From sequence record OM362897.1: DNA of 64,000 nt; one strand, written 5' to 3'. Shown one piece after another: positions 1,279 to 18,932 of this stretch. The notes under the pieces were generated by a model. The model did no database searches. It had not been told where the DNA came from and saw nothing but the letters and a program-made list of their open reading frames with translations. The first letter of the stretch is position 1, and each line of letters starts with the position of its first letter. Both the position numbers and the translations under genes were made by a program. The DNA comes from Escherichia phage SKA64.

Positions 1279-3093
1279 ATGAAAGATTTGTACCAAGATG
1301 TTTTTTCTTTTTTAGATCGCACTTCAGAAACATACACTAGAGAGAATGCAAACAAACCTTCCCACCTCGTTAACACACATAGGGATCTCTTGGCGGGGAT
1401 TTTAAGCAAACATATGGCAATGACACAGATACTGCCAAAAAACTTGTCAGAATGGCATACAGAAGGTTTTGGACATATTCACGACTTGGATTATCTGCTC
1501 TCTCCTCTTACAAACTGTTGTCTTGTTAATTATCAAGATATGTTAGAAAATGGTTTTAAGATCGGTGCCGCACAAATAGAAAAACCAAAATCTATTGGAG
1601 TAGCTACCACAGTGCTAACTCAAATCATCCAAGCTGTTGCCTCCAGTCAGTATGGAGGTCAGACGTGTGCGCACATTGATAAAGGTCTTAGTCCTTATGT
1701 TGAAGCTAGTTTCCTTAAAAACATGGAGATAACCAAACGTCGCTACGGTTGTTATGCAAGGAAAGAAGCCCTAGAAATGACCGAACAAGATGTATACGAT
1801 GCTATGCAAACTCTCTTGTATCAGGTTAATACTTTAATGAGTGTTAATGGACAATCTCCTTTTATTACAATCAGTATGGGTCTGGATACCTCTGTTTTTG
1901 GCAGAATGATCACAGCTAACTATCTTAAAGTGCATAGTAATGGTCTAGGCAAAGATCATGTAACGCCTGTATTCCCTAAAGTTATTTTCTTTTTACAAGA
2001 AGGTGTTAACATGAAACCTAGTGATCCTAACTATGACCTTAAGCAACAAGCTTTGGCATGTTGTGCTGATCGTATTTATCCAGATTTTATTTCTGTTCCT
2101 TTGAACAAAGAAGTTACGGGATCAGCAGATGGCACTGTTACGAGTATGGGTTGTCGTTCCTTTTTGTCGTACTATGCCACCGAACAAGGAGAAAAATACG
2201 ATGGACGATTCAACCTTGGAGTAGTTTCTATCAACTTACCTCTGATCGCTGCGGAAGCGAGAAGTAAAGGAGAATCTTTCACCGATCTTCTTAATAAACA
2301 TATGGAGATAGCCTACGATGCTCACATGCTACGTGTAAACCGTATCAGACATACCAAAGCATCTGAAAACCCTATTCTTTTCATGGAAGGGGCTTTAGCT
2401 CGTTTAAATGCCAACGATGAAATTGGTGTTTTGTTTGAAGGTGGTTATGCTTCTATTAGTATTGGTTATGTAGGTCTTGCCGAAGCTTTGGAAATCCTTT
2501 ATCCAGAAGAAAAAGATAAAAAGGAACTTGGTAAAAACATTCTGCAACATATGAAAGATGTGTGTGCTGTGTTTAAAGAACGATCTAATTTGGCGTTTAG
2601 TCTCTATGGAACTCCAGCAGAATCTTTGTGCTATAAGTTTGCAACAGCTTTAAATGAAAAATACCCAGGTTTGGTAGAAAGAGACTATCTTACTAACTCT
2701 TTTCATCAACCTGTGTGGTTGGTAACAAACCCTTTTGAAAAATGGGATTATGAAGCAGGTTTTGCACAGATTAGTAATGGTGGTAACATAAGTTATGTCG
2801 AAACACCAAACTTAAAGAATAACTTAGAAGCTTTGGAGACTTTAGTAGACTACGCTTATGAACATATTCACTATTTTGGTATTAATCAGCCCGTGGATCA
2901 ATGCTTTAAGTGTGGTTTTCATGGGGAATTTAAGGCAACGGCTAAAGGGTTTGAGTGTCCTGATTGTGGCAACCATGAAGAAGAAACTATTTCTGTAGTT
3001 AGACGTGTGTCAGGGTATCTTTCTGCCCCTAACTCACGCCCTTACAACAAAGGTAAAATGCAGGAAGTTTTGCAAAGGGAGAAACATCTTTGA
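1279..3093 (+). CDS. nrdD: anaerobic ribonucleoside-triphosphate reductase (class III), NrdD
   Basis: 604 aa; C-terminal zinc ribbon CFKCG...CPDCG followed by glycyl-radical loop RRVSGYL; size and layout typical of phage NrdD. Confidence 0.85.
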   Translation: MKDLYQDVFSFLDRTSETYTRENANKPSHLVNTHRDLLAGILSKHMAMTQILPKNLSEWHTEGFGHIHDLDYLLSPLTNCCLVNYQDMLENGFKIGAAQIEKPKSIGVATTVLTQIIQAVASSQYGGQTCAHIDKGLSPYVEASFLKNMEITKRRYGCYARKEALEMTEQDVYDAMQTLLYQVNTLMSVNGQSPFITISMGLDTSVFGRMITANYLKVHSNGLGKDHVTPVFPKVIFFLQEGVNMKPSDPNYDLKQQALACCADRIYPDFISVPLNKEVTGSADGTVTSMGCRSFLSYYATEQGEKYDGRFNLGVVSINLPLIAAEARSKGESFTDLLNKHMEIAYDAHMLRVNRIRHTKASENPILFMEGALARLNANDEIGVLFEGGYASISIGYVGLAEALEILYPEEKDKKELGKNILQHMKDVCAVFKERSNLAFSLYGTPAESLCYKFATALNEKYPGLVERDYLTNSFHQPVWLVTNPFEKWDYEAGFAQISNGGNISYVETPNLKNNLEALETLVDYAYEHIHYFGINQPVDQCFKCGFHGEFKATAKGFECPDCGNHEEETISVVRRVSGYLSAPNSRPYNKGKMQEVLQREKHL

Positions 3094-3560
3094 ATTTTGC
3101 AGGATATGAACCTGTAGATCTTATTAATGGCGAGGGAGTTAGGTGCTCCCTCTGGGTTAGTGGTTGTAGCCACGGTTGTCGTGGCTGTTTTAACCAAAAA
3201 GCCTGGTCTTATTCTTATGGGAAACCGTTCACTCACGAAAATGTAGAGCAAGTTTTAAAAGATTTGTCAAGACCGTTTGTAAAAGGTTTAACAATTTTAG
3301 GAGGAGAGCCATTAGATCCACAGAATATTTACAATGTTAAAAACCTTATAGAAAAGGTTAGAGACGTTTATGGGTCAAGCAAAGATATAATGGTGTATAC
3401 AGGGTATACTTTTGAGGAAGTGCCTTTGTATATTAAAAATCTTGTTGACATTATTGTAGACGGAAAGTATGAAATAAACAATCCAACTACAAAACCTTTC
3501 AGAGGGTCAGATAATCAAAGATTATGGACCAAAACGGCAAGTGGTTGGCAATCAGATTAA
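3090..3560 (+). CDS. nrdG: anaerobic ribonucleotide reductase activating protein (radical SAM), NrdG
   Basis: 156 aa; Cys cluster CSHGCRGC (Cx3Cx2C) near N-terminus; TTG start overlapping nrdD stop, AGGGAG RBS upstream. Confidence 0.8.
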   Translation: MNFAGYEPVDLINGEGVRCSLWVSGCSHGCRGCFNQKAWSYSYGKPFTHENVEQVLKDLSRPFVKGLTILGGEPLDPQNIYNVKNLIEKVRDVYGSSKDIMVYTGYTFEEVPLYIKNLVDIIVDGKYEINNPTTKPFRGSDNQRLWTKTASGWQSD

Positions 3561-3780: not shown

Positions 3781-4386
3781 ATGCAACATAGTGTAGTAGT
3801 CAACATGCCGAATAGTGGGGATAAATCTTTTGGTGTCCCTGCTAAAAAAGTGTGGAAAGCCCATTTTCATCTTACTTTATCTAACGTTAGTTCTGAAGAG
3901 TTGATGAAAGCAGCTAAGATTATTGGTGCCAAATGCACAACAATTGATTTACATCGGGATACAAAGTCTCAACGTGATCGTATGTTAACAAAGTATCAAA
4001 GCGATCTCGACACTACTTTAATGTTGCAGTGTGTAGAAAAACTTGAGAATGCAGGTTTCAATGTTGTTCGTTACAAACTGGAACGAATGTTTAAACATGT
4101 TGCCTGTGTTCTTTTCATGGATCTAAGTAAAGAAAATTACGGAGAAGTTCACATTAAGACTTCAGCAAGTGATCCCGAAGTAGAAACAAACTTCTTCCGT
4201 ATTTCTTCTAATGCTGAAGAAATTGATTACCGATTTTATAATGCTCGCTTATATTCCGCAGAAGATAAGTTGCGTTTCAATGAAGCGTATGATATGCTCT
4301 TGAACAGTGGGATACAGATAAAAGGCTACCACATAGAACAAGTGGTAGTGGACAGTAATCTTAACTTAGACGCATGGTGGGCTTAA
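3781..4386 (+). CDS. hypothetical protein (201 aa)
   Basis: ORF with GAGGAG RBS; first gene of the HAD/PRTase/macro run; no secure motif. Confidence 0.6.
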   Translation: MQHSVVVNMPNSGDKSFGVPAKKVWKAHFHLTLSNVSSEELMKAAKIIGAKCTTIDLHRDTKSQRDRMLTKYQSDLDTTLMLQCVEKLENAGFNVVRYKLERMFKHVACVLFMDLSKENYGEVHIKTSASDPEVETNFFRISSNAEEIDYRFYNARLYSAEDKLRFNEAYDMLLNSGIQIKGYHIEQVVVDSNLNLDAWWA

Positions 4387-4387
4387 T

Positions 4388-5044
4388 ATGACTATTAAAC
4401 ATATCTCTTTTGATGTATGGAACACACTGATCACAGCAAACTCCAATTACGCAGACATGCGAGCCTGGACTATCGCAAAATATGGAGATATTACGGAAGT
4501 TGAAGCAAGAGCAGCTTATAAAAAGATCAAAAAGGAACTGGATAATGCAGCACTTCAAGGCAAAGCCGAGTGTGCAGCATACGCCTGGGAAAGACTTGGT
4601 TCTGAACTTGGGATAACGCCTTGGAAGTCTGCAAAGCTTCGTTTCGAGTGTGAACAGTGGTTCCTTAAGTTTCCACCACACGTAGCCGTAGATCTGCCGA
4701 TGTACTTGCTGTATCTTTCTGGGCGTTATGATTTGAGTATTAAGAGCAATACCAACTTCATATCAGGGGATATTCTGCGTCGTGCTTGTAAGTTTGATAG
4801 TTGGAATTGTTTTGAGTTCACCCATTTCTCGGATGAAGCTTTACTTTGTAAACCAGATCCGCGATTCTTTGCTCGCACGCTCACGTATTCTCCGATCCCT
4901 CTGTTAGGGCACGAAGTGTTGCACGTAGGCGATAGTGAAGAATATGATGGAAAATGTGTTGACTTAGGGTTTAACTTCTGTCATATTAAGAACCCTAACG
5001 ACTTACTAGAGAAACTTAAAAGAGGAGAAATTGTAAATGCGTAA
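4388..5044 (+). CDS. HAD-like hydrolase (tentative)
   Basis: N-terminal FDVWNTL (variant HAD motif I) and C-terminal VGDSEEYD (HAD motif IV-like); assignment by motif only. Confidence 0.45.
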   Translation: MTIKHISFDVWNTLITANSNYADMRAWTIAKYGDITEVEARAAYKKIKKELDNAALQGKAECAAYAWERLGSELGITPWKSAKLRFECEQWFLKFPPHVAVDLPMYLLYLSGRYDLSIKSNTNFISGDILRRACKFDSWNCFEFTHFSDEALLCKPDPRFFARTLTYSPIPLLGHEVLHVGDSEEYDGKCVDLGFNFCHIKNPNDLLEKLKRGEIVNA

Positions 5045-5864
5045 TCAAACTCAAATTTTTGCAAATAAATTTGATGACCTGGAAACTGCTACTTTTGATA
5101 TCCAAGATTATTCAAAATTGAAATTTGGTAGTAACCAAGCTGCGCGTCGTATGGGTAAAGAATTGGCACTTCAGTTTTTTGCTCAAGTGGCAATGAAACA
5201 TATTGGGGAACAATTTGTTATCATTCCTTCTCCTTACAACCATGTGCATAATGCTGCAACAATGATGACAGATCATTTTATTAATTACTTCAATATGTTG
5301 CAAGCACAATATGATCAAGGTCGTTCAGCAGAACTGGACATTATTCATCGTAAAGTTAGCTATATCAACGATTATGGTTTCTTGGATAAAGCTAGTCGTA
5401 AGAAACTTATTGATGGGGATACATTCTACTGTAACAAAGAATTCTGGGGTGATAAGAAGCTTGTGTTTATTGATGATGTAAATATCACTGGAACTCATGA
5501 AGACAAACTGATTGAGATCCTTGATGAAAATCAAGTTAAAAATGATGTTTACTTCTTGTATTTTGCAAAATACGAAGGTAATCAAGCAGATACCGAAGCT
5601 AAACTGAATTTTAATTATATTAATACACCAGAAGCGTTTGTTAAAATGATTAATGAAGAACGTGATGCACAGTGTCTTGTTCGTCCTATTAAGTATCTTA
5701 TGGGCCAAAATCACGAAGACTTCAAAATCATTCTTAGCCAATTACCACACTACTATGTAGAGCAACTTTTCTTCGGATGTTTGGGAGAAGGTTACAACCG
5801 AATTTCAAAGTATGCCGAAAACTTTGAATTCTTGGATCGTTACACAAAACAACACATTCTGTAA
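5037..5864 (+). CDS. phosphoribosyltransferase-like protein (type I PRTase fold)
   Basis: PRPP-binding signature LVFIDDVNITGTHE (hydrophobic run, DD, TG-T); ATGCGTAA overlap with upstream gene. Confidence 0.55.
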   Translation: MRNQTQIFANKFDDLETATFDIQDYSKLKFGSNQAARRMGKELALQFFAQVAMKHIGEQFVIIPSPYNHVHNAATMMTDHFINYFNMLQAQYDQGRSAELDIIHRKVSYINDYGFLDKASRKKLIDGDTFYCNKEFWGDKKLVFIDDVNITGTHEDKLIEILDENQVKNDVYFLYFAKYEGNQADTEAKLNFNYINTPEAFVKMINEERDAQCLVRPIKYLMGQNHEDFKIILSQLPHYYVEQLFFGCLGEGYNRISKYAENFEFLDRYTKQHIL

Positions 5865-5877
5865 TAAGGAGCTAAAA

Positions 5878-6351
5878 ATGCTTAAAATGAAAACAGGTAA
5901 TCTTATTGATGCCGCTAAAGCAGGTGAAGTAACTGTTATTGCTCATTGTTGCAATTGTATGTGTAATATGGGGGCAGGTATTGCCCCACAAATCAAACGA
6001 GCATTTCCTTACGCATATGCAGCAGACTTAGACACAATGGCTGGTGATCAAAGTAAACTAGGTTGTTTTAGTTTAGGGGTGCCAGACGAACAATCAGATC
6101 CTTTGGTATATAATCTATACGGGCAGTATCGTTATGGATACAATGCTAAAGGTCGTCAGTTGGACTATGATGCACTTTACGATGCACTAATAGCTATGGC
6201 TAACGATTTGCTTCTCCGTGACCAAAAATGTAAGATCGGCTTACCTATGATTGGCGCTGGATATGCTGGAGGTAATTGGGCTATCATCCAAGTGATGATT
6301 GAAGAAACTTTAGTAAAAACAGGTCACGATGTGACTATTTATAAACTTTAA
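5878..6351 (+). CDS. macro domain protein (ADP-ribose binding/processing family)
   Basis: GNLID...VIAHCCNC...MGAGIA...IKRAF and later IGLPMIGAGYAGG match macro-domain motifs; start set at ATG 5878 with AAGGAG RBS rather than track start 5812. Confidence 0.6.
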   Translation: MLKMKTGNLIDAAKAGEVTVIAHCCNCMCNMGAGIAPQIKRAFPYAYAADLDTMAGDQSKLGCFSLGVPDEQSDPLVYNLYGQYRYGYNAKGRQLDYDALYDALIAMANDLLLRDQKCKIGLPMIGAGYAGGNWAIIQVMIEETLVKTGHDVTIYKL

Positions 6352-6363
6352 GAGGAGATTAGT

Positions 6364-6585
6364 ATGGGTGTTTTTGCAGGTATTGTTGCAGTGGTAAGCT
6401 TTTTTGTTATTGCTTTTATGCTTAGTTTGATTCCAGCTTGGTTACTGTTGCTGGCTTACAACTATGTTGCTGAAGTTATGGGTCATGCAGATATCACTGT
6501 CCCAGTAACCTTCTGGACCGTGGTTTGTGTTTCGTTTATTCTGGCTGTATTACGAGGAATCTTTTCCTCTCATTCAACAAAATAA
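6364..6585 (+). CDS. small hydrophobic membrane protein (73 aa)
   Basis: GAGGAG RBS; two predicted transmembrane helices. Confidence 0.55.
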   Translation: MGVFAGIVAVVSFFVIAFMLSLIPAWLLLLAYNYVAEVMGHADITVPVTFWTVVCVSFILAVLRGIFSSHSTK

Positions 6586-6588
6586 GTG

Positions 6589-6616
6589 TTGACATAGTTC
6601 TTAAAAAGAGTAAGAT
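6589..6616 (+). promoter_or_regulatory. sigma70-like promoter (TTGACA-16-TAAGAT) upstream of TerC gene
   Basis: Exact TTGACA -35 in the intergenic gap, acceptable -10 at 16-nt spacing; a 7-bp hairpin (GCGGGGA/TCCCCGC, about 6629-6647) lies in the short leader. Confidence 0.45.
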
Positions 6617-6664: not shown

Positions 6665-7639
6665 ATGCAACTTGGTTTCCCCATTATTGATGTAGTTGTT
6701 TTAGTTGGTATTTTAGCATTGTCTATTGGTATCGATTTCTTTGGTCACAAAGAAAATAAAGAAATTTCATTCAAATCCGCAGTTGATTGGTCGATCTTTT
6801 GGATTGGTGTATCATTAGCTTATTATGGTTTTGTATACTTCCAACATGGTGCCGATTTTGCTAACTTGTTTTTAAGTGGATATGTGTTGGAAAAATCTTT
6901 GTCGGTAGATAACTTAGTAGTATTTGTAGCAGTATTCGCAAGTTTTGGTATTAAAAGCACACACTTGCAGCACAAGATTCTACTTTGGGGTATTGCAGGT
7001 GCGATTGTCTTCCGAGGTGTGTTTGTAGCAGTAGGCACTTACTTGTTAAGTTTGGGCTGGTATGTTAATATCTTCTTCGGTGCGGTCATCCTTTTCTGTG
7101 CAGCTAAAATGGTATTTGCTGGAGATAATGACGCAGAAGTTGATTACTCTAAACACTGGGCTACCCGTATTGTTCGTAAACTGTTCCCTGTATCTAATAA
7201 AATGGATGGGGAGAAGTTCTTCACAATCGAAAATGGTGTTCGTGTAGCAACTCCAGCTTTGGTTTGCGTATTCGTGATGGAAATGGTGGATGTAATCTTT
7301 GCAGTAGATTCGGTTCCAGCGGTGATCGCAGTGACACAAGAACCCCTACTTGTATTCTCTTCGATGTTATGTGCAATCTTAGGTCTACGTGCTCTGTTCT
7401 TTGTTCTTAGTGTCGCACTGAAGTATCTGGTTCACTTGGAGAAAGCAGTTATTGTGGTTCTGGTGTTTGTAGGCGTTAAACTGATGTATCACCCGTTTGC
7501 AGAAACATTGCATGAGAAAATGAGTTTCCTGCCAGCACATATTGATCCAACTATTAGTATGTATATCGTGCTTGGTACTTTGGCCCTTGGTGTTATTGCA
7601 AGCTTTATCTTCCCTGAAAAAGAAGAAGCTACTATTTAA
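6665..7639 (+). CDS. TerC-family integral membrane protein
   Basis: 324 aa polytopic membrane protein containing YVLEKSLSVDNLVVF, matching the conserved E-x-SLSVDN signature recalled for the TerC family. Confidence 0.7.
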   Translation: MQLGFPIIDVVVLVGILALSIGIDFFGHKENKEISFKSAVDWSIFWIGVSLAYYGFVYFQHGADFANLFLSGYVLEKSLSVDNLVVFVAVFASFGIKSTHLQHKILLWGIAGAIVFRGVFVAVGTYLLSLGWYVNIFFGAVILFCAAKMVFAGDNDAEVDYSKHWATRIVRKLFPVSNKMDGEKFFTIENGVRVATPALVCVFVMEMVDVIFAVDSVPAVIAVTQEPLLVFSSMLCAILGLRALFFVLSVALKYLVHLEKAVIVVLVFVGVKLMYHPFAETLHEKMSFLPAHIDPTISMYIVLGTLALGVIASFIFPEKEEATI

Positions 7640-7645
7640 TAAATG

Positions 7646-7670
7646 AGCCTCCTTCGGGAGGCTATTTTAT
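7646..7670 (+). terminator. rho-independent terminator
   Basis: Stem AGCCTCC/GGAGGCT with TTCG loop followed by ATTTTAT just after TerC stop. Confidence 0.6.
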
Positions 7671-9264: not shown

Positions 9265-9855
9265 ATGCATACCGAGAGAGACTTGCAACTCTTGTGGTGG
9301 GAAGTGATGCAGGAAATAAAAGAAGATTTTCCTGTTTACTACAACATGTTACGTGAAGCAGGATATAAAGCTTGTGTTAGAAACAAAGTGAATAACTCTT
9401 TCGGTTGGTGCAACTACCGAGATAAAATTGTTGTTGTAAATTGGCACTTGCATAAGAACTCCACAAGAGATATGATCGTGGATACAATGAAGCACGAAAT
9501 TGCTCATGCTATTGATGGTTGTATGGGTAAGTTTAGTAGGCACGGTGCTCATTGGCAAAAACTGGCAGCAGAATTAGGGGCTAATCCTAAAGCCACTTCC
9601 AAAGAGCCGTTGAACCACGAATATAAATATGTTCTTGTTCTGGTAGATAGGTTTGCGACAAGATGTGTTAGAGGTTATAATCGTAAACCTAATCGCATGT
9701 ACCCAGGTAAGCAACCTAATATGTGGTTGAAATCAGATAAAGAAGGGACCGAAGGAAAATTATGGTTGTATAAATGGGACGATTGGGTTAAAGTAGCTAA
9801 AGAGTACGGTGTTTCACCATATATAAGAGATGCAGAAGAGGAGAATGAAGAATGA
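9265..9855 (+). CDS. SprT-like zinc metallopeptidase domain protein
   Basis: IVDTMKHEIAHAIDG (HExxH zinc-binding motif in SprT-like context). Confidence 0.55.
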   Translation: MHTERDLQLLWWEVMQEIKEDFPVYYNMLREAGYKACVRNKVNNSFGWCNYRDKIVVVNWHLHKNSTRDMIVDTMKHEIAHAIDGCMGKFSRHGAHWQKLAAELGANPKATSKEPLNHEYKYVLVLVDRFATRCVRGYNRKPNRMYPGKQPNMWLKSDKEGTEGKLWLYKWDDWVKVAKEYGVSPYIRDAEEENEE

Positions 9856-10964
9856 CAAGTCCATTTTTAAAAGCAGCTACTGGTGGTCAGAAGAAGCCTG
9901 AAATGAGCGTATTTGCTGCAACAACAGATGCAAGTAAATCTGTATTCGCTCCAAGCGTGTTAGATGCCAGTCCTGTTTATGCACCAGCGGCACCGCAAGA
10001 AGTTCCAGTTTTGCCTTCTATGACCCGACAAGAGATTGAAGAGATTGGGGCAGAGGCAGGAACAACCTTGCGTTCCTTGAATGCCGAGGTGTTAAAACAT
10101 CAACGTAGTAATCAAGGCGATCAGATGAGTGAACGACTCACAGCTTTGATTAAACAGGCAAAACAACTTGATCCAAACTCTATTAAACAAAGCAAGGGTA
10201 TTACTAAACTCATTAAAAAAGTTATGGGTATGAAAGAAGACCTGTTCGGGGAGTTTGATAATGTTAATAACCGTATTGAAGAGTTGGTAAAGAACCTTCA
10301 AATGGATATTCGCAAAGAAGAAGATTCCTTGGTATATCTTGAAAAGCTACATCAAGCTATTGGACAATATGCTGCAAGTTTGAACCGAGATATGCAGCTT
10401 CTAACAGCAACCTATGAAAAAGAAGAACAAGCTTTGGCTGCTCTTCCAGAAGATGCAGTAGAACAGCGACAAGTGATCCGAGATACTTTGGATCTTCTGG
10501 AGATTCGTATTGCAGATTTAAAAGCATTGCGCCTACTGTGTGTCCAAATGGGACCGCGTGTACAAGGTATGCAAAAAGTTTCTGCAAGCTTAATGCGATC
10601 TGCGCGTAACATAGTAAATAATGTTATTCCTGCTTACTCTGCTAACTTCTCAATGTATATCGAGAGCTTACGTCAAATGAAAGCAGCAGAGACGCAGAAT
10701 AACGTTCTTGATGAATTTAACCTGGCAATTAAACTGGGTAGCGATCTTGCCACACAGAATCAGATCGAAGCAGCAGCACTGGCTAACCGTCAAGTGTTGG
10801 ATATTGAAACTCTGCGTCACGATCAGGAAAACTTGGTTAAGATGCTGGAAGAAACTAACCGCATCAATACGGAAGCCCGTGCTGCTCGTGTTGATTATAT
10901 TAATGAAGTTCAATCTCTGGAAGACGGGATGGTAGCTGCTGTGAAACGAGGGCTTGGTAAATGA
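9852..10964 (+). CDS. TelA/KlaA-like toxic-anion-resistance family protein (tentative)
   Basis: 370 aa, largely alpha-helical/coiled-coil, size and composition consistent with TelA; assignment supported mainly by TerC/TerD context. Confidence 0.4.
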   Translation: MTSPFLKAATGGQKKPEMSVFAATTDASKSVFAPSVLDASPVYAPAAPQEVPVLPSMTRQEIEEIGAEAGTTLRSLNAEVLKHQRSNQGDQMSERLTALIKQAKQLDPNSIKQSKGITKLIKKVMGMKEDLFGEFDNVNNRIEELVKNLQMDIRKEEDSLVYLEKLHQAIGQYAASLNRDMQLLTATYEKEEQALAALPEDAVEQRQVIRDTLDLLEIRIADLKALRLLCVQMGPRVQGMQKVSASLMRSARNIVNNVIPAYSANFSMYIESLRQMKAAETQNNVLDEFNLAIKLGSDLATQNQIEAAALANRQVLDIETLRHDQENLVKMLEETNRINTEARAARVDYINEVQSLEDGMVAAVKRGLGK

Positions 10965-12557: not shown

Positions 12558-13352
12558 ATGTCCGAGAAAATCAGCCTGAAAAAACGTCAAGAAAACCTTG
12601 CTTTCTCTCTGAAAAAGAATAAGAACCTGAATGAAGGTAAGATTGTTCTTCGTGTAGCATGTGCTCTAGATATTTCTGGTAGTATGCATGGTCTATATTC
12701 TAGTGGGGTAGTGAGTGATTTTGTAGGTAAACTGCTTCCTTTTGGTATGTTGTTCGACGATAATCAACAAATTGATATGTGGGCCTTCAATACGAGTTCC
12801 CAAGAGCTTACTCCAGCAACAGCAGACGTTTACGACGACTATGTTGGTAAATGTATGCGTAATGTTCGTATCGGAGGTGGAACAAATTACGCCCCTGTAA
12901 TGGCAGATATCTACGATGAGTATTTTGGCACTGTTACCAAATATATTACCACTAAACAAGTGGTACAAGAGGAGGCTCCAAAGAAAGGCTTCTTTAATCG
13001 TCTGCTTGGTAAAACTGAAACAGTGTCTGTAGAGCGTGAAAAAGTTGTAGCTGTATCAGAACCAGGTGCTGACGTTACCCCTGGTGTTGTATTCTTCCAG
13101 ACGGATGGTGAGAATGGTGATCCTAGTGCTGTTCGTCGTCTTATCGAAGAGAATAAGAATAAACCTATTTATTGGTTCATGGTTGGCGTTGGTAATGAGA
13201 AGTTTGGCTTCCTGAAAGAACTGGCAAATGCTTATGATAATGTTGGTTTTATTGGCATTAAAGATTTAGACTTGACAGATTCAGAGCTTTATGACAAACT
13301 CTTATCTGAAGAGTTCGGAGAGTGGGTTGTTAAAGTAGGTGCTAAAAAATGA
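12558..13352 (+). CDS. TerF-like protein: TerD-type N-terminus fused to von Willebrand factor A domain
   Basis: N-terminal KISLKK segment like TerD; MIDAS motif LDISGSM plus GGGTNY and FFQTDGENGD. Confidence 0.6.
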   Translation: MSEKISLKKRQENLAFSLKKNKNLNEGKIVLRVACALDISGSMHGLYSSGVVSDFVGKLLPFGMLFDDNQQIDMWAFNTSSQELTPATADVYDDYVGKCMRNVRIGGGTNYAPVMADIYDEYFGTVTKYITTKQVVQEEAPKKGFFNRLLGKTETVSVEREKVVAVSEPGADVTPGVVFFQTDGENGDPSAVRRLIEENKNKPIYWFMVGVGNEKFGFLKELANAYDNVGFIGIKDLDLTDSELYDKLLSEEFGEWVVKVGAKK

Positions 13353-13862: not shown

Positions 13863-14465
13863 ATGACTGATAAAATTTCCCTGAAAAAAGGCTCTAGCGA
13901 AAAAATTTCCCTGAAGAAGGTTGCTCCGGCTCTGAAAGAACTGCGCCTGGAATTCTCTTGGAAGTCTGATTCTAAACTGGATCTGGATGTAAGTGCACTG
14001 GTTTGTCGTCACAATGCCGCTGGCAATCCTGAAATGCTGTCTGCACGTCATCTTGTTTGCTATGCTAACAAGTTTGATCCTGAACGTTCTACCTTCGCTG
14101 GTGACGATGTTCGTGATGGCACTGGCAGCATGGAGCAGATCGATATTACTCTGGCTAAAATCTCTCCTGATGCACAAGAGATTGCCTTTGTTCTGACCAT
14201 TGATGATGATACAGGTCTGAAACGTTTTGGTCATGCTTCTGAAGGTATGCTTAAAATCTTCGACTCCGAGCGCAATGTGGAAATTCTGGATTTTGACTTC
14301 CTGGCTCCTGAAGTAGCTGGCAACACAATCTGCCACGTGGCTTCCTTGGTTCGTGAAGATGGGGAATGGAAGCTGAAAGCATATGGTGTAGGCAAAGCTG
14401 GTCTGGATATTTGTGATGTGGTGATGGCCTTCGGTGGTAAAAAAGAATGGTATGAATGTCCATAA
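13863..14465 (+). CDS. TerD-domain stress protein
   Basis: 200 aa; N-terminal KISLKKG...LDLDVSALV and GDDVRDGTG...IDDD pattern typical of TerD; codon usage biased to CTG/CGT/GGC. Confidence 0.75.
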   Translation: MTDKISLKKGSSEKISLKKVAPALKELRLEFSWKSDSKLDLDVSALVCRHNAAGNPEMLSARHLVCYANKFDPERSTFAGDDVRDGTGSMEQIDITLAKISPDAQEIAFVLTIDDDTGLKRFGHASEGMLKIFDSERNVEILDFDFLAPEVAGNTICHVASLVREDGEWKLKAYGVGKAGLDICDVVMAFGGKKEWYECP

Positions 14466-15787: not shown

Positions 15788-16351
15788 ATGATTTATTATA
15801 TTACTCCCTATCTGACAGGAAATATCGGCAAGGCTATCAATGAAGCCATTGCCGTTCTTCCAGATGATAGTTGGGTGTGTTTAAGAGATACCGATACAAT
15901 GTTCCTCCTACCTGATCAACCATCTATGCTTGAAGAGCTTGTTATGTCAAACCCGCCTTTTGATGTAATAGGTGCAACTTGTAACAGGTTAGGTAGTGGT
16001 TATCAGCTTTTCTCTAACCAAATTAACGATGATCCCGATATTCTAAACCATATAGAATATGCTAAGATTGCAAGAGAATATCATAAAGTGAGTGTTGAAG
16101 AAGTTCCTTTCGGAACACCTCTGGCAGGTTTCTTTTTGCTTTTTAGAAAATCATTGTGGAATGAAATTCCTTTCGAAGAAAAATCTATCCAATTCGACTT
16201 AATTTTCTCTCGCACTTTACATGAAAAAGGAAAGAGGTTAGGATTGATGCGGGGAATGTATCTGTTTCACATTTACAGATTAGGTCAAACAAATCCTCAA
16301 CGGTCTATACATCATTTATTACACTGTCATGATCACAGTAAAACTATTTAG
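15788..16351 (+). CDS. putative nucleotide-sugar transferase-like protein (weak)
   Basis: LRDTDTMF DxD-like segment; first gene of glycosyltransferase-like run. Confidence 0.3.
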   Translation: MIYYITPYLTGNIGKAINEAIAVLPDDSWVCLRDTDTMFLLPDQPSMLEELVMSNPPFDVIGATCNRLGSGYQLFSNQINDDPDILNHIEYAKIAREYHKVSVEEVPFGTPLAGFFLLFRKSLWNEIPFEEKSIQFDLIFSRTLHEKGKRLGLMRGMYLFHIYRLGQTNPQRSIHHLLHCHDHSKTI

Positions 16352-16359
16352 GAGAGAAA

Positions 16360-17043
16360 ATGGAAAATATTAAAATCGGAGTGGGTGTTATCACTGTAGG
16401 TGTCCGTCCACTTAAAGACTACCTTGTAACAGATCCACGTGCAGATTTTCGAGTATTCAACGATCCAGATCGTAAAGGTGTAGCTTATGCCAGGAATGAA
16501 CTTATGCACCAGTTTTATGAAGAAGGTTATGATTATTGGTTTATTTTTGACGATGATTGCTACCCAGTCATGGAGGGATGGGAAACATACTTTGTAGATC
16601 AAGCTGTCTCTGGAGGATGGGATTTCTTTGGTATGCCGGAGTATTTCAAAGATAAAGTTGTTGGAAGCAAAGGAGAAGTTATTCTCTGGGAACTTGCAAT
16701 GTGTCAATTTGCAATGTATTCTCGTGCCGTTGTTGAGAAGATGGGTTATTTCCGTCCTTACACTCACGGTTATGGTTTTGAAGATGCTGAATGGGGACAC
16801 CGTTTGCAAGCTGCTGGTTTGAATCATGGTATTCAGGCAACACCTTGTCCACTTCGTATCATGGCTTATATCCACCCAGACGATGTTTTTGGAAACAATC
16901 CTATGCCTTTTGCTAACCTGACAAAAGAAGAGAAAGAGGCTGCTATTGGGATTAACTGGGAAGAATATAAAGCATCTTTAGAGGATATTAAAAATGGGAA
17001 AATCCGAATTTCCTATGAGGAGGCACTAGCACATGTCAAATAA
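16360..17043 (+). CDS. glycosyltransferase family 2-like (GT-A fold)
   Basis: KGVAYARNEL and FIFDDDCYP (DxD) motifs. Confidence 0.5.
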   Translation: MENIKIGVGVITVGVRPLKDYLVTDPRADFRVFNDPDRKGVAYARNELMHQFYEEGYDYWFIFDDDCYPVMEGWETYFVDQAVSGGWDFFGMPEYFKDKVVGSKGEVILWELAMCQFAMYSRAVVEKMGYFRPYTHGYGFEDAEWGHRLQAAGLNHGIQATPCPLRIMAYIHPDDVFGNNPMPFANLTKEEKEAAIGINWEEYKASLEDIKNGKIRISYEEALAHVK

Positions 17044-17980
17044 AAAATGGTCTAAACTAAAAATTGATGCAAAACCTCACAGCGGTTGTGACTATCATCG
17101 TATTGTTATACCATTTAACAACAATAATATTCAACCTAAGAAAGATGTTGTTGTGTTTAACCGTATCCACTCTAAAGGTGCAGAATACGTTTTATCTTTG
17201 AAACGTCAAGGTGTTAAGGTTGTTGTAGACTTAGATGATTTTTACCAACTTAATCCAGAACATTATTTAGCAAGTCTATACGAGTCAAACACTCATGCTA
17301 TTGTAGCTATGGTTAAGCTTGCTGATGTGGTTATTGTGACTACGGAATATTTGGCATATAAGATCCGTCACTTAAATAGGAATGTTGTTGTGATCCGAAA
17401 TGCACTTCCTTTTGATAGCGGACAATTCACTTTGTCAAATGATCGTTCATCCGGTACCCCTGTTGTATGGGCTGGCGGTGCTAGTCACGAACCAGACTTA
17501 CGACTAGTCTCTAATACTTTCGATGATGAACTTCTTACTATTGCGGGATATGAAGCATCACAAAGCATCACGGGACAAGAGTGGATTAAGATTCGCAGAA
17601 ATTTACCAAATGCCAAATATAAAGCCGCTGTAAAAGATTTAGATAATTACATGAGTGTTTACGAAAGTCATGCTATTGCTATAGCTCCTTTGGTAGATAA
17701 TGATTTTAATAATTGTAAAAGTAATCTCAAAATCCTGGAAGCTGGAGCAAAAGGTATTCCAATTGTTTGTTCTAAGGTATTACCTTATTTTAACCCTGTA
17801 GATGCTCGCGCTGTTGCTTACGCAGAGAATAAAGCAGAATGGCATTACGAAATTGTTAAGCTTCTTCGCAATCCAAACTATCGGGAAGATCGTGGCTTGT
17901 TCTTGGCTGAACATGTTCGAACACATTATAATCTGGCAGATGCAAACGAGTTGCGACGCCAGGTTATTGAAAGTTTGTAG
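17033..17980 (+). CDS. glycosyltransferase-like protein, paralog 1 (GT-B-like)
   Basis: NCKSNLKILEAGAKGIPIVCS resembles GT-B donor-binding helix; paralogous to next gene. Confidence 0.4.
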   Translation: MSNKKWSKLKIDAKPHSGCDYHRIVIPFNNNNIQPKKDVVVFNRIHSKGAEYVLSLKRQGVKVVVDLDDFYQLNPEHYLASLYESNTHAIVAMVKLADVVIVTTEYLAYKIRHLNRNVVVIRNALPFDSGQFTLSNDRSSGTPVVWAGGASHEPDLRLVSNTFDDELLTIAGYEASQSITGQEWIKIRRNLPNAKYKAAVKDLDNYMSVYESHAIAIAPLVDNDFNNCKSNLKILEAGAKGIPIVCSKVLPYFNPVDARAVAYAENKAEWHYEIVKLLRNPNYREDRGLFLAEHVRTHYNLADANELRRQVIESL

Positions 17981-17987
17981 GTGAAGT

Positions 17988-18932
17988 ATGGGACAAATAA
18001 TTCTTGACAATCGTAACGGAATCAATTATAGTGTCTGCGATTTCCATAGGGTAGTGCTGCCTTACTCAAGGCAGTTCTCTTCACAACCTAAACACAACGT
18101 TTTCGTTTTTAACGGAGTGCCAACAAAAGGTAAAGAGGGCTTTTTAGCCCTTAAAAACCTAGGCTTTAAAATGGTTATGGATTTGGATGACTCTTTAGTT
18201 ATTCCAAAAGGACACATGTTAGAAGGTATTTTTGAATCAGGTATTCGTGAACATTTAAAATGGTTTTTAGAGCACAGCGATCTTGTTACAACTACGACAC
18301 CTGCTTTGCAAGTTGAACTTTCACAATACAATGATAATGTGCACATAATCCCTAATGGTCTTCCTTACGATGAAGGTCAATTTGTGTTGACCCGTGATCG
18401 CTACTCCAAAACTCCATTAGTCTGGGCGGGAAGTGAAACACATAAACAAGATTTGGCTATCTTGCCCGATTTTGGTAAAGATCTTACGATATGTGGTTTT
18501 CGTAGGGATTCTGAAGTTTTAAGTAGTCGTGAATGGTCTGTGATCAGAGAAAATGTAGCACCAACTTGTGTTTATGAAGGTGTAAGACCATATGCCAACT
18601 ACATGGAATCTTACGATGGTCATCAAATCAGTCTTGCGCCATTGATTGATAACGTGTTTAATAATGCAAAAAGCAATCTTAAAATTCTTGAGGCAGGTGC
18701 TAAGGGTTTACCTTTGATCTGTTCTCCTCGTGAGAATTATCATACACAAGAGTTTAAAGATTTGTTATTCTTTGCTGAAACGCCTTCCGAGTGGAAAGAT
18801 ATTACGGAATACTTATTAAGTGCTCCCGATGTTTGCATGGAGAAAGGATTAGCATTAGCTAAGTATGTCAGGACTCATTATCACATTGATGTGTTGAATG
18901 AGCGTCGTAGACTTTTATTTGAGGAGCTATAA
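17988..18932 (+). CDS. glycosyltransferase-like protein, paralog 2 (GT-B-like)
   Basis: NAKSNLKILEAGAKGLPLICS; conserved N-terminus C-D-F/Y-H-R-V/I with paralog 1. Confidence 0.4.
   Translation: MGQIILDNRNGINYSVCDFHRVVLPYSRQFSSQPKHNVFVFNGVPTKGKEGFLALKNLGFKMVMDLDDSLVIPKGHMLEGIFESGIREHLKWFLEHSDLVTTTTPALQVELSQYNDNVHIIPNGLPYDEGQFVLTRDRYSKTPLVWAGSETHKQDLAILPDFGKDLTICGFRRDSEVLSSREWSVIRENVAPTCVYEGVRPYANYMESYDGHQISLAPLIDNVFNNAKSNLKILEAGAKGLPLICSPRENYHTQEFKDLLFFAETPSEWKDITEYLLSAPDVCMEKGLALAKYVRTHYHIDVLNERRRLLFEEL

Follow-up and report, generated by a model that had tools for sequence, protein, structure and literature searches.

Phage Ter systems that encode phosphoribosyltransferases (PRTases) and HAD enzymes for 'signal biosynthesis' have already been described; in the published account, a nucleoside or nucleotide derivative is the product of the two enzymes (Iyer et al. 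2021, PMC7824862). Phage macrodomain (macro) proteins are known from other settings. A transposon screen on a DarTG2 host gave Tk.4 of phage T4 as its single hit; T4 without this gene is more sensitive to DarTG2, and the protein was given the name AdfM (bioRxiv 10.1101/2025.11.20.689424); gp104 of phage phiKZ, a DarG-like AdfM, takes DarT2 modifications off DNA (PMC13309987). The macro protein Adpp of Vibrio phage Gary is an ADP-ribose (ADPR)-1''-phosphate phosphatase inside NARP1 that feeds the reconstitution of nicotinamide adenine dinucleotide (NAD+) (bioRxiv 10.64898/2026.01.28.702374). Here we analysed 64,000 nucleotides of Escherichia phage SKA64 (sequence record OM362897.1; this whole stretch is the window below), in which a PRTase gene (5037-5864, + strand) is followed by a macro gene (5878-6351, +). 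The first-pass annotation had suggested, as an alternative to a Ter-linked metabolite role, that the pair could reverse host ADP-ribosylation or replenish NAD-derived metabolites depleted by abortive-infection systems. Both open reading frames (ORFs) and their motifs are present, and Pfam and PHROG matches showed that both are real genes; the joint pathway found no backing. We consider it probable that the two genes belong to separate modules that are neighbours in a co-directional run, namely a HAD plus PRTase_3 pair serving a Ter cluster and a macro hydrolase serving counter-defence.

The source phage of the window is a Phapecoctavirus. Escherichia phage tuntematon was 99.1% identical to the region across 4.4 kb, and about 130 related records from the genera Phapecoctavirus and Justusliebigvirus, subfamily Stephanstirmvirinae, matched the region.

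Tight coupling to the PRTase is seen for the HAD gene upstream of it (4388-5044, +), a point missed in the first-pass annotation. The two genes share 8 nt, from the PRTase start to the HAD stop, and the HAD gene contains a good ribosome-binding site. The HAD-superfamily hydrolase matched phrog_14393 (E 3e-117), Pfam Hydrolase (weakly) and the REG-2-like and YjjG-like HAD-IA models of NCBIfam (also weakly). In classical HAD phosphatases motif I reads D-x-D, and the second Asp (Asp+2) is the general acid/base. Motif I of the window protein (residues 7-14) reads S-F-D-V-W-N-T-L, with Trp in place of Asp+2. The same D-x-W (once D-x-Y) was found in every lineage and in the fusions (21 related HAD partners from other loci and five fusion proteins), and the subfamily keeps the nucleophile Asp, the Ser/Thr, Lys and G-D...D motifs.

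We surveyed 49 PRTase_3-anchored loci from annotated phages, plasmids, IMG/VR viral contigs, GTDB genomes and metagenome contigs, which were grouped at 70% identity into 24 clusters (lineages). A HAD homologue was the immediate upstream gene in 23 of the 24, mostly overlapping or a few bases away, and this adjacency included rhizobial plasmids and Bacteroidota. The metagenomic proteins P0294, P0318 and P0401 are HAD-PRTase_3 fusions, and P0292 is a PRTase-HAD-PRTase_3 fusion. The HAD-PRTase pairing is obligate and evolutionarily inseparable. Other members of the PRTase_3 family are tandem PRTase repeats of 900-1150 aa.

The PRTase tracks the HAD and Ter genes, not macro genes. Ter genes (TerC, TelA, vWA-TerF, TerD) lay within 10 kb of PRTase_3 in 12 of the 24 lineages, with two or more of them in nine. 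Several jumbo-phage contigs (200-350 kb) carry a compact arrangement of TelA, vWA-TerF, TerC, HAD, PRTase_3 and TerD with no macro gene, and TerD and TerC also lie near PRTase_3 in Bacteroidota and in one actinobacterial locus. A macro homologue was found within 10 kb of PRTase_3 in five lineages and directly after it in only two, the Phapecoctavirus type and the Justusliebigvirus type, both of Stephanstirmvirinae. On a distant Stephanstirmvirinae-like contig (L034/L060) the Ter cluster separates the macro gene from HAD-PRTase, with one at either end and about 10 kb between them. The adjacency of PRTase and macro is an inherited trait of one phage subfamily, not a pathway, and the partner of the PRTase is the HAD protein.

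Rhizobial plasmids carry the HAD-PRTase_3 pair alone. One rhizobial locus lies among decaprenyl-phosphoribose-pathway-like genes (UbiA, GMC oxidoreductase, epimerase) and another does not; the rhizobial contexts were too inconsistent to draw on. A protein of the DUF2828/DUF7788 type flanks HAD-PRTase_3 in three jumbo-phage lineages that lack Ter genes (L008 10967-12562; L012 7152-8555; L004 8941-10527). An RNA ligase gene lies within about 3 kb of the pair in two of these three, and two of the three have tRNA-repair-like surroundings (CCA-adding enzyme, Nudix); L008 also has PTH2 and a weak 2H-SAK match.

The PRTase ORF encodes 275 aa, and the type I PRTase signature LVFIDDVNITGTHE occupies residues 142-155. 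The protein matched PF15610 PRTase_3 ('ComF-like') with E 7.7e-42 and 143.9 bits against a gathering cut-off of 28.7, over model positions 9-264 of 264, and matched phrog_13415 with E 2e-161. PRTase_3 was the only Pfam family matched. An alignment-based AlphaFold model had a mean predicted confidence (pLDDT) of 92.9, and its best structural match was ComF; no close viral structure was found in the BFVD fold search. The model and its matches indicate a type I, ComF-like fold rather than the type II fold of Nampt and Namat. Across 54 homologues, down to 44% identity, residues D146, D147, V148, I150, T151, G152, T153, H154 and E155 of the loop LVFIDDVNITGTH that binds phosphoribosyl pyrophosphate (PRPP) were invariant. 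So were a Ser-Pro-Tyr-Asn stretch at the position of the pyrophosphate loop, R105, Y109, D112-F115 and R121 in a low-confidence flexible loop, and residues of an extra C-terminal helical domain specific to PRTase_3. The type I fold and the intact PRPP loop (acidic pair plus T-G-x-T) expected of a PRTase_3 were both found, and neither sequence nor model gave any sign of a catalytically dead enzyme. The family is small, with 850 representatives at E <= 1e-3 among 1.84 billion cluster representatives, and it occurs in 156 phage records.

Some GenBank records label the PRTase an 'orotate phosphoribosyltransferase', and NrdD and NrdG lie just upstream (1279-3560, +), at the start of the co-directional run. 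An ordinary nucleotide-salvage enzyme that boosts supply alongside ribonucleotide reductase is scarcely credible here. The NCBIfam scan matched no family at E <= 0.01, and so no salvage-PRTase or orotate phosphoribosyltransferase (PyrE) model; ComF, the best structural match, is not a salvage enzyme; and the conserved C-terminal helical domain and the small size of the family do not fit. An obligate hydrolase partner would also destroy a salvage nucleotide. The orotate label is unsupported.

The macro ORF ends at 6351 and holds the motif VIAHCCNC...GAGIA; in its longest form it begins at 5812, inside the PRTase gene. The true start is the ATG at 5878, after the PRTase stop (5862-5864) and 6 nt downstream of the Shine-Dalgarno sequence AAGGAG (5866-5871, +). 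It is the annotated start in tuntematon and in P3322, and homologues align from it. The resulting stand-alone macrodomain has 157 aa. It just passed the Pfam Macro cut-off (22.9 bits against 22) and matched phrog_335 (E 1e-54) and the PADLOC DarG model (E 4e-10). The DarG models matched in their macro part only, at positions 1-144 of 329 for PADLOC and with 34.6 bits against a cut-off of 250 for NCBIfam. A phmmer search of PDB returned, in order, SCO6735 (E 1e-12), BT1257 of Bacteroides, human TARG1, Thermus DarG and, weakly, yeast Poa1p. The structure model (pLDDT 94.1) gave TARG1, BT1257, DarG, Poa1p and SCO6735 as top Foldseek matches, with template modelling (TM) scores of about 0.75-0.83; E was 1e-11 to 1e-7 for TARG1, DarG and SCO6735, and about 2e-8 for the Poa1p structures (TM 0.8).

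Among 58 macro homologues H23, N26, Q83, G126 and G132 were invariant, and G128 was present in at least 90%. SCO6735 frees thymidine in DNA of DarT-installed ADPR; changing Asn27 or Gln85 abolishes its activity, G128E strongly reduces it, and the loss in H24Y was ascribed to disrupted structure (PMC9411070). Asn27, Gln85 and Gly128 of SCO6735 align with N26, Q83 and G128 of the window protein, His24 with H23, and Gly126 with G126. The catalytic position holds Gln in the window protein, SCO6735 and T4/T2 Tk.4, and Lys in DarG, TARG1 and phiKZ AdfM. Sequence and model place the macro protein in the ALC1-like class as an ADPR hydrolase of the TARG1/DarG/SCO6735/Poa1p kind with predicted catalytic residues intact, and the sequence gave no sign of a dead enzyme. 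BLASTP of the window protein against T2 Tk.4 gave 36% identity (E 7e-21). The macro family occurs in 2927 phage records, compared with the 156 of PRTase_3. Its nearest relatives outside the subfamily belong to Vequintavirinae (phage 4MG, for example, 49% identity), and no PRTase_3, HAD, Ter or NARP1 genes were found within 6 kb of them. The macro ORF of Justusliebigvirus (JohannJBalmer, Bas62; L003 9833-10567) is longer by about 90 aa in frame at its N-terminus and there overlaps the PRTase stop; the additional segment may form a further domain, and metagenomes too encode macro proteins 220-223 aa long (P0150 and P0151, for example).

Two macro activities were considered for this phage. The role is rated more likely to be AdfM-like than Adpp-like, because no Adps or Namat gene was found in it. 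A tblastn search at E < 0.1 detected neither of them in the window, nor in the part of tuntematon that was covered (146.5 of 150.5 kb, 97%), so that the arrangement of a NARP1 operon, with Adps and Namat within two genes of the macro gene, was not found. The same holds for the combination that marks NARP1 or NARP2, a type II Nampt/Namat PRTase with Adps or NMNAT, and the Nudix gene labelled 'NMNAT/Nudix' in Rhizobium phage TM21B gave no match in the window when used as query. The NARP1 model phage, Bas63, is a Felixounavirus. Justusliebigvirus Bas60 carries a NADAR factor against DarTG1, and DarT pressure on Stephanstirmvirinae is therefore documented; a search of the present phage for NADAR (AdfN), made with one distant query only, gave no match.

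In the arrangement that we favour, HAD and PRTase_3 would act as a translationally coupled pair, the part of the phage Ter cluster that deals with a small molecule. The PRTase would move 5-phosphoribose from PRPP to a base-like acceptor, and the HAD enzyme would then process the product, classically by 5'-dephosphorylation. The resulting 'nucleoside-like' Ter metabolite may be sensed or used by the membrane and sensor proteins of the cluster. The purpose of Ter in a phage could be the exclusion of competing phages (superinfection exclusion) or the conditioning of envelope and ions, as conjectured from PMC7824862. The macro protein would independently cleave C1'' substituents of ADPR as a counter-defence enzyme. 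Acting like AdfM, it would strip DarT2-added ADPR from thymidines of phage single-stranded DNA, and an Adpp-like phosphatase activity may coexist. Of the activities named in the first-pass annotation, reversal of host ADP-ribosylation fits the macro protein alone, by its class, residues and homology to AdfM, and finds no support as a task shared with the PRTase. Replenishment of NAD metabolites fits some macro relatives (Adpp in NARP1) and does not fit the PRTase here, which is of type I and is not accompanied by any Adps or Namat gene found in the window or the checked part of tuntematon.

Several observations weigh against this arrangement. Many HAD-PRTase_3 pairs, on rhizobial plasmids and in several phages, have no detectable Ter genes, so a Ter cluster is evidently not needed for the pair to work. 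Since Asp+2 is replaced in every HAD lineage, a simple nucleotidase step cannot be taken for granted. Our literature search found no paper that identifies the product of PRTase_3 and HAD or that tests any PRTase_3 or HAD partner. In three divergent lineages of the Stephanstirmvirinae kind the macro gene keeps its place at the Ter cluster or close to it, which may reflect some functional tie. The best NARP1-adjacent macro homologues are about 50% identical to the window protein and T4/T2 Tk.4 only 36%, a neighbour-joining tree of macro proteins mixes AdfM-type and Adpp-type contexts, and judged from sequence an Adpp-type activity could be the main one. Neither the tree nor the catalytic residues separated AdfM-type from Adpp-type proteins. 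Sequence does not tell the two activities apart, because the contexts are intermixed in the tree and all members share the catalytic His, Asn, Gln and Gly.

A macro protein that is mainly an ADPR-1''-phosphate phosphatase like Adpp or Poa1p, clearing the products of RES-type NAD+ phosphorylases or of RNA 2'-phosphotransferase, seems rather unlikely to us. Poa1p is among the sequence and fold matches, and Gary Adpp is a macro protein of the same kind with proven activity. Among the 80 closest viral macro loci, Namat lay within 6 kb in 29 and Adps within 6 kb in 27, and 29-31 stood beside NARP1 genes. In Vibrio phage K354 (L017 4166-7119) a macro gene 37% identical to that of the window sits between Adps and Namat. 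The closest homologues outside Stephanstirmvirinae and Vequintavirinae (46-51% identity) stand beside Namat and Adps, and the mobile loop is long as in K354 and L070, not 5 residues shorter as in T2 Tk.4. Against the phosphatase, released ADPR would have no known phage route back to NAD+ because no Adps or Namat was found, the clade of the window protein (Stephanstirmvirinae plus Vequintavirinae) has no NARP1 linkage, and the closest PDB match by sequence, SCO6735, removes ADPR from thymidine in DNA. The two activities are perhaps not mutually exclusive; one enzyme could do both, since both reactions cleave the C1'' substituent of ADPR. The loci behind this observation are those of K354, the PAK_P1-like Pseudomonas phages L126-L130 and L137, and L070-L117. 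The share of 29-31 in 80 exceeds the reported 15% of NARP1 operons with a macro gene, although the denominators differ.

The same linkage to NARP1 can be read in favour of a pathway in which HAD, PRTase_3 and macro jointly rebuild or salvage an NAD-derived metabolite, as a non-homologous substitute for Adps-Namat. The macro protein would, for example, free ADPR or remove the 1''-phosphate, with the PRTase either putting nicotinamide back on or making nicotinamide mononucleotide (NMN) from PRPP. HAD-PRTase_3 takes the macro-adjacent position in Stephanstirmvirinae, Nampt/Namat-like genes lie 4-8.5 kb from PRTase_3 in L032 and L035, and a Nudix gene is one gene off PRTase_3 in Rhizobium phages. 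The 13-nt gap between PRTase and macro, with no terminator predicted before 7646-7663, makes co-transcription likely, and since this is the first predicted terminator, HAD, PRTase, macro and the small membrane-protein gene that follows are probably one transcript. Unrelated accessory genes commonly share a transcript in phage early regions, so co-transcription is no evidence of a shared pathway. The macro gene adjoins PRTase_3 in only two of the 24 lineages, and in L034/L060 lies across the Ter cluster from it; the PRTase fold is not that of Nampt or Namat; Adps was not found in the window or in the checked part of tuntematon; and bacterial HAD-PRTase_3 pairs stand in Ter clusters or alone, without NAD context. 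An NMN phosphatase would moreover counteract NAD+ synthesis. We regard the joint pathway as quite improbable. The narrower claim that the D-x-W HAD, PRTase_3 and macro of Stephanstirmvirinae form a new ADPR/NAD counter-defence pathway replacing Adps-Namat is very improbable; if it were true, the 'Ter metabolite' would be an NAD- or ADPR-related compound. The macro protein might instead be a working part of the Ter module that trims or recycles a ribosyl or ADP-ribosyl intermediate or switches the Ter signal off. Its gene stays about 4 kb or less from TerC in Phapecoctavirus, Justusliebigvirus and L060, even when not beside the PRTase, and in the window it stands between PRTase and TerC, co-directional with both and ahead of the terminator. 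Such a role is improbable, given that other HAD-PRTase_3 Ter clusters of jumbo phages and bacteria have no adjacent macro gene, that shared descent alone explains a conserved order within one subfamily, and that in phages the macro family outnumbers PRTase_3 about 20-fold.

Two separate modules remain our preferred explanation. The rest of the run holds the phage Ter cluster. The macro gene is followed by a gene for a small hydrophobic protein of 73 aa with two predicted membrane spans (6364-6585, +); Justusliebigvirus encodes a 60% identical protein in the same place. Next comes the TerC-family membrane protein (6665-7639, +; PF03741, E 1e-38). The promoter and terminator scan placed a promoter-like site at 6589-6616, ahead of TerC, and the strong hairpin terminator after it. 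The cluster continues on the same strand with a SprT-like metallopeptidase (9265-9855), a TelA-family protein (9852-10964; PF05816, E 3e-33), a vWA-TerF-like protein (12558-13352; PF10138, E 1.6e-37) and a TerD-domain protein (13863-14465; PF02342, E 3e-28). Compared with phage PNJ1809-36, the numbers of synonymous and non-synonymous differences were 8 and 0 in HAD, 13 and 0 in the PRTase and 5 and 1 in the macro gene; nearly all are synonymous, so the three genes are under purifying selection.

The TerC gene is mosaic. Its protein is 95% identical to the version of Justusliebigvirus Bas62, and its DNA is merely 72% identical to that of Phapecoctavirus PNJ1809-36, where genes 3781-6585 are 98-100% identical; the breakpoint coincides with the promoter-like site. 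The stop of the SprT-like gene (9855) overlaps the TelA start (9852), and the gene is absent at that position in Justusliebigvirus. Further along, four consecutive ORFs (15788-18932, +) are labelled glycosyltransferases in tuntematon. The last two have weak GT4-type Pfam matches and the second a weak match to a TET-associated glycosyltransferase; a dTDP-rhamnose pathway is encoded elsewhere in the tuntematon genome, and the four genes may serve glycan or DNA modification. Sirtuin-macro pairs occur in bacteria. Gp208 of tuntematon (NC_052660.1 136756-137571, outside the window) is a Sir2-like NAD-dependent protein encoded about 100 kb from the macro gene, and no linkage between the two was seen.

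The ORF immediately upstream of HAD (3781-4386, +; 201 aa, fold unassigned) is an anti-defence candidate. It gave near full-length matches to two PADLOC 'AbiEi' (antitoxin) models (E 5e-13) and no match in profile searches of Pfam, NCBIfam or PDB. A 36% identical homologue on an unrelated 110-kb phage contig (L139 5001-5534) overlaps a gene for Acb1, which is directed against the defence system CBASS, and lies 4 kb from a NADAR gene. Judged from these matches, the ORF may be a counter-defence gene of the orphan-antitoxin type. A 2H-phosphoesterase had also been considered for it, from its HLTL motif and a route from Appr>p through Appr-1''p to ADPR with the macro protein; Pfam, searched with the single protein or with 16 homologues at E <= 10, NCBIfam and PDB gave no support. 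Membership of this ORF in either module is unsupported.

These results correct the annotation of about 130 Stephanstirmvirinae records, which include coliphages that are therapeutic candidates. The 'putative phosphatase' becomes a DarG/TARG1-class macrodomain of the AdfM/Adpp family, which predicts resistance to DarTG2-type and possibly RES-type defences, and the 'orotate phosphoribosyltransferase' becomes a Ter-type PRTase_3, one half of a HAD-PRTase unit. The phage pair, with one PRTase and a D-x-W HAD, represents a minimal two-gene Ter module that would be convenient for identifying the metabolite.

Anantharaman, Iyer and Aravind reportedly proposed in 2012 that a 'nucleoside-like' Ter metabolite is made by PRTase and HAD, and the larger bacterial Ter modules of that paper are said to include an ATP-grasp enzyme, a second PRTase and a C-C lyase. 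The window resembles the PRTase plus HAD modules of Ter systems in its strong PF15610 match, its ComF-like type I fold and the adjacent HAD gene, and its TerC, TelA, vWA-TerF and TerD genes lie within 9 kb on the same strand. It differs in having one PRTase and a HAD, with no ATP-grasp enzyme, second PRTase or C-C lyase among the ORFs scanned with Pfam (part of the cluster), in the D-x-W instead of D-x-D of its HAD, and in the insertion of the macro and small membrane-protein genes between PRTase and TerC.

The window macro protein was also compared with each described relative. Against DarG, the antitoxin of DarTG2, it aligns to the N-terminal macro part, and the DarG macrodomains of Thermus and Mycobacterium are top fold matches, whereas it has 157 aa instead of about 330, lacks the C-terminal DarT-binding domain and has Gln instead of Lys; no darT is annotated within the surrounding 28 kb of tuntematon, and the protein was not classed as a DarG antitoxin. 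With Adpp of the NARP1-AP operon of Vibrio phage Gary it shares the macro family, and its own fold is Poa1p-like; the window gene stands outside a NARP1 operon with HAD-PRTase_3 and TerC as neighbours. SCO6735 of Streptomyces coelicolor (PDB 5E3B), the best PDB sequence match, shares the long basic mobile loop at equal length; its identity is about 26%, and it is a cellular, DNA-damage-regulated protein rather than a phage gene product. The window protein shares with the AdfM proteins T4 Tk.4 and phiKZ gp104 its DarG/TARG1 class, its length of about 155 aa and its occurrence as a stand-alone phage macrodomain. The catalytic position is Lys in phiKZ AdfM, and Gln in the window protein as in SCO6735. 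T2 Tk.4 shares the His-x-x-Asn, the Gly-rich loops and the catalytic Gln, and the mobile loop after this Gln is 5 residues longer in the window protein. Both genes therefore belong to known kinds, the PRTase_3 of Ter modules and the AdfM/Adpp macro family, and do not form a new two-gene system.

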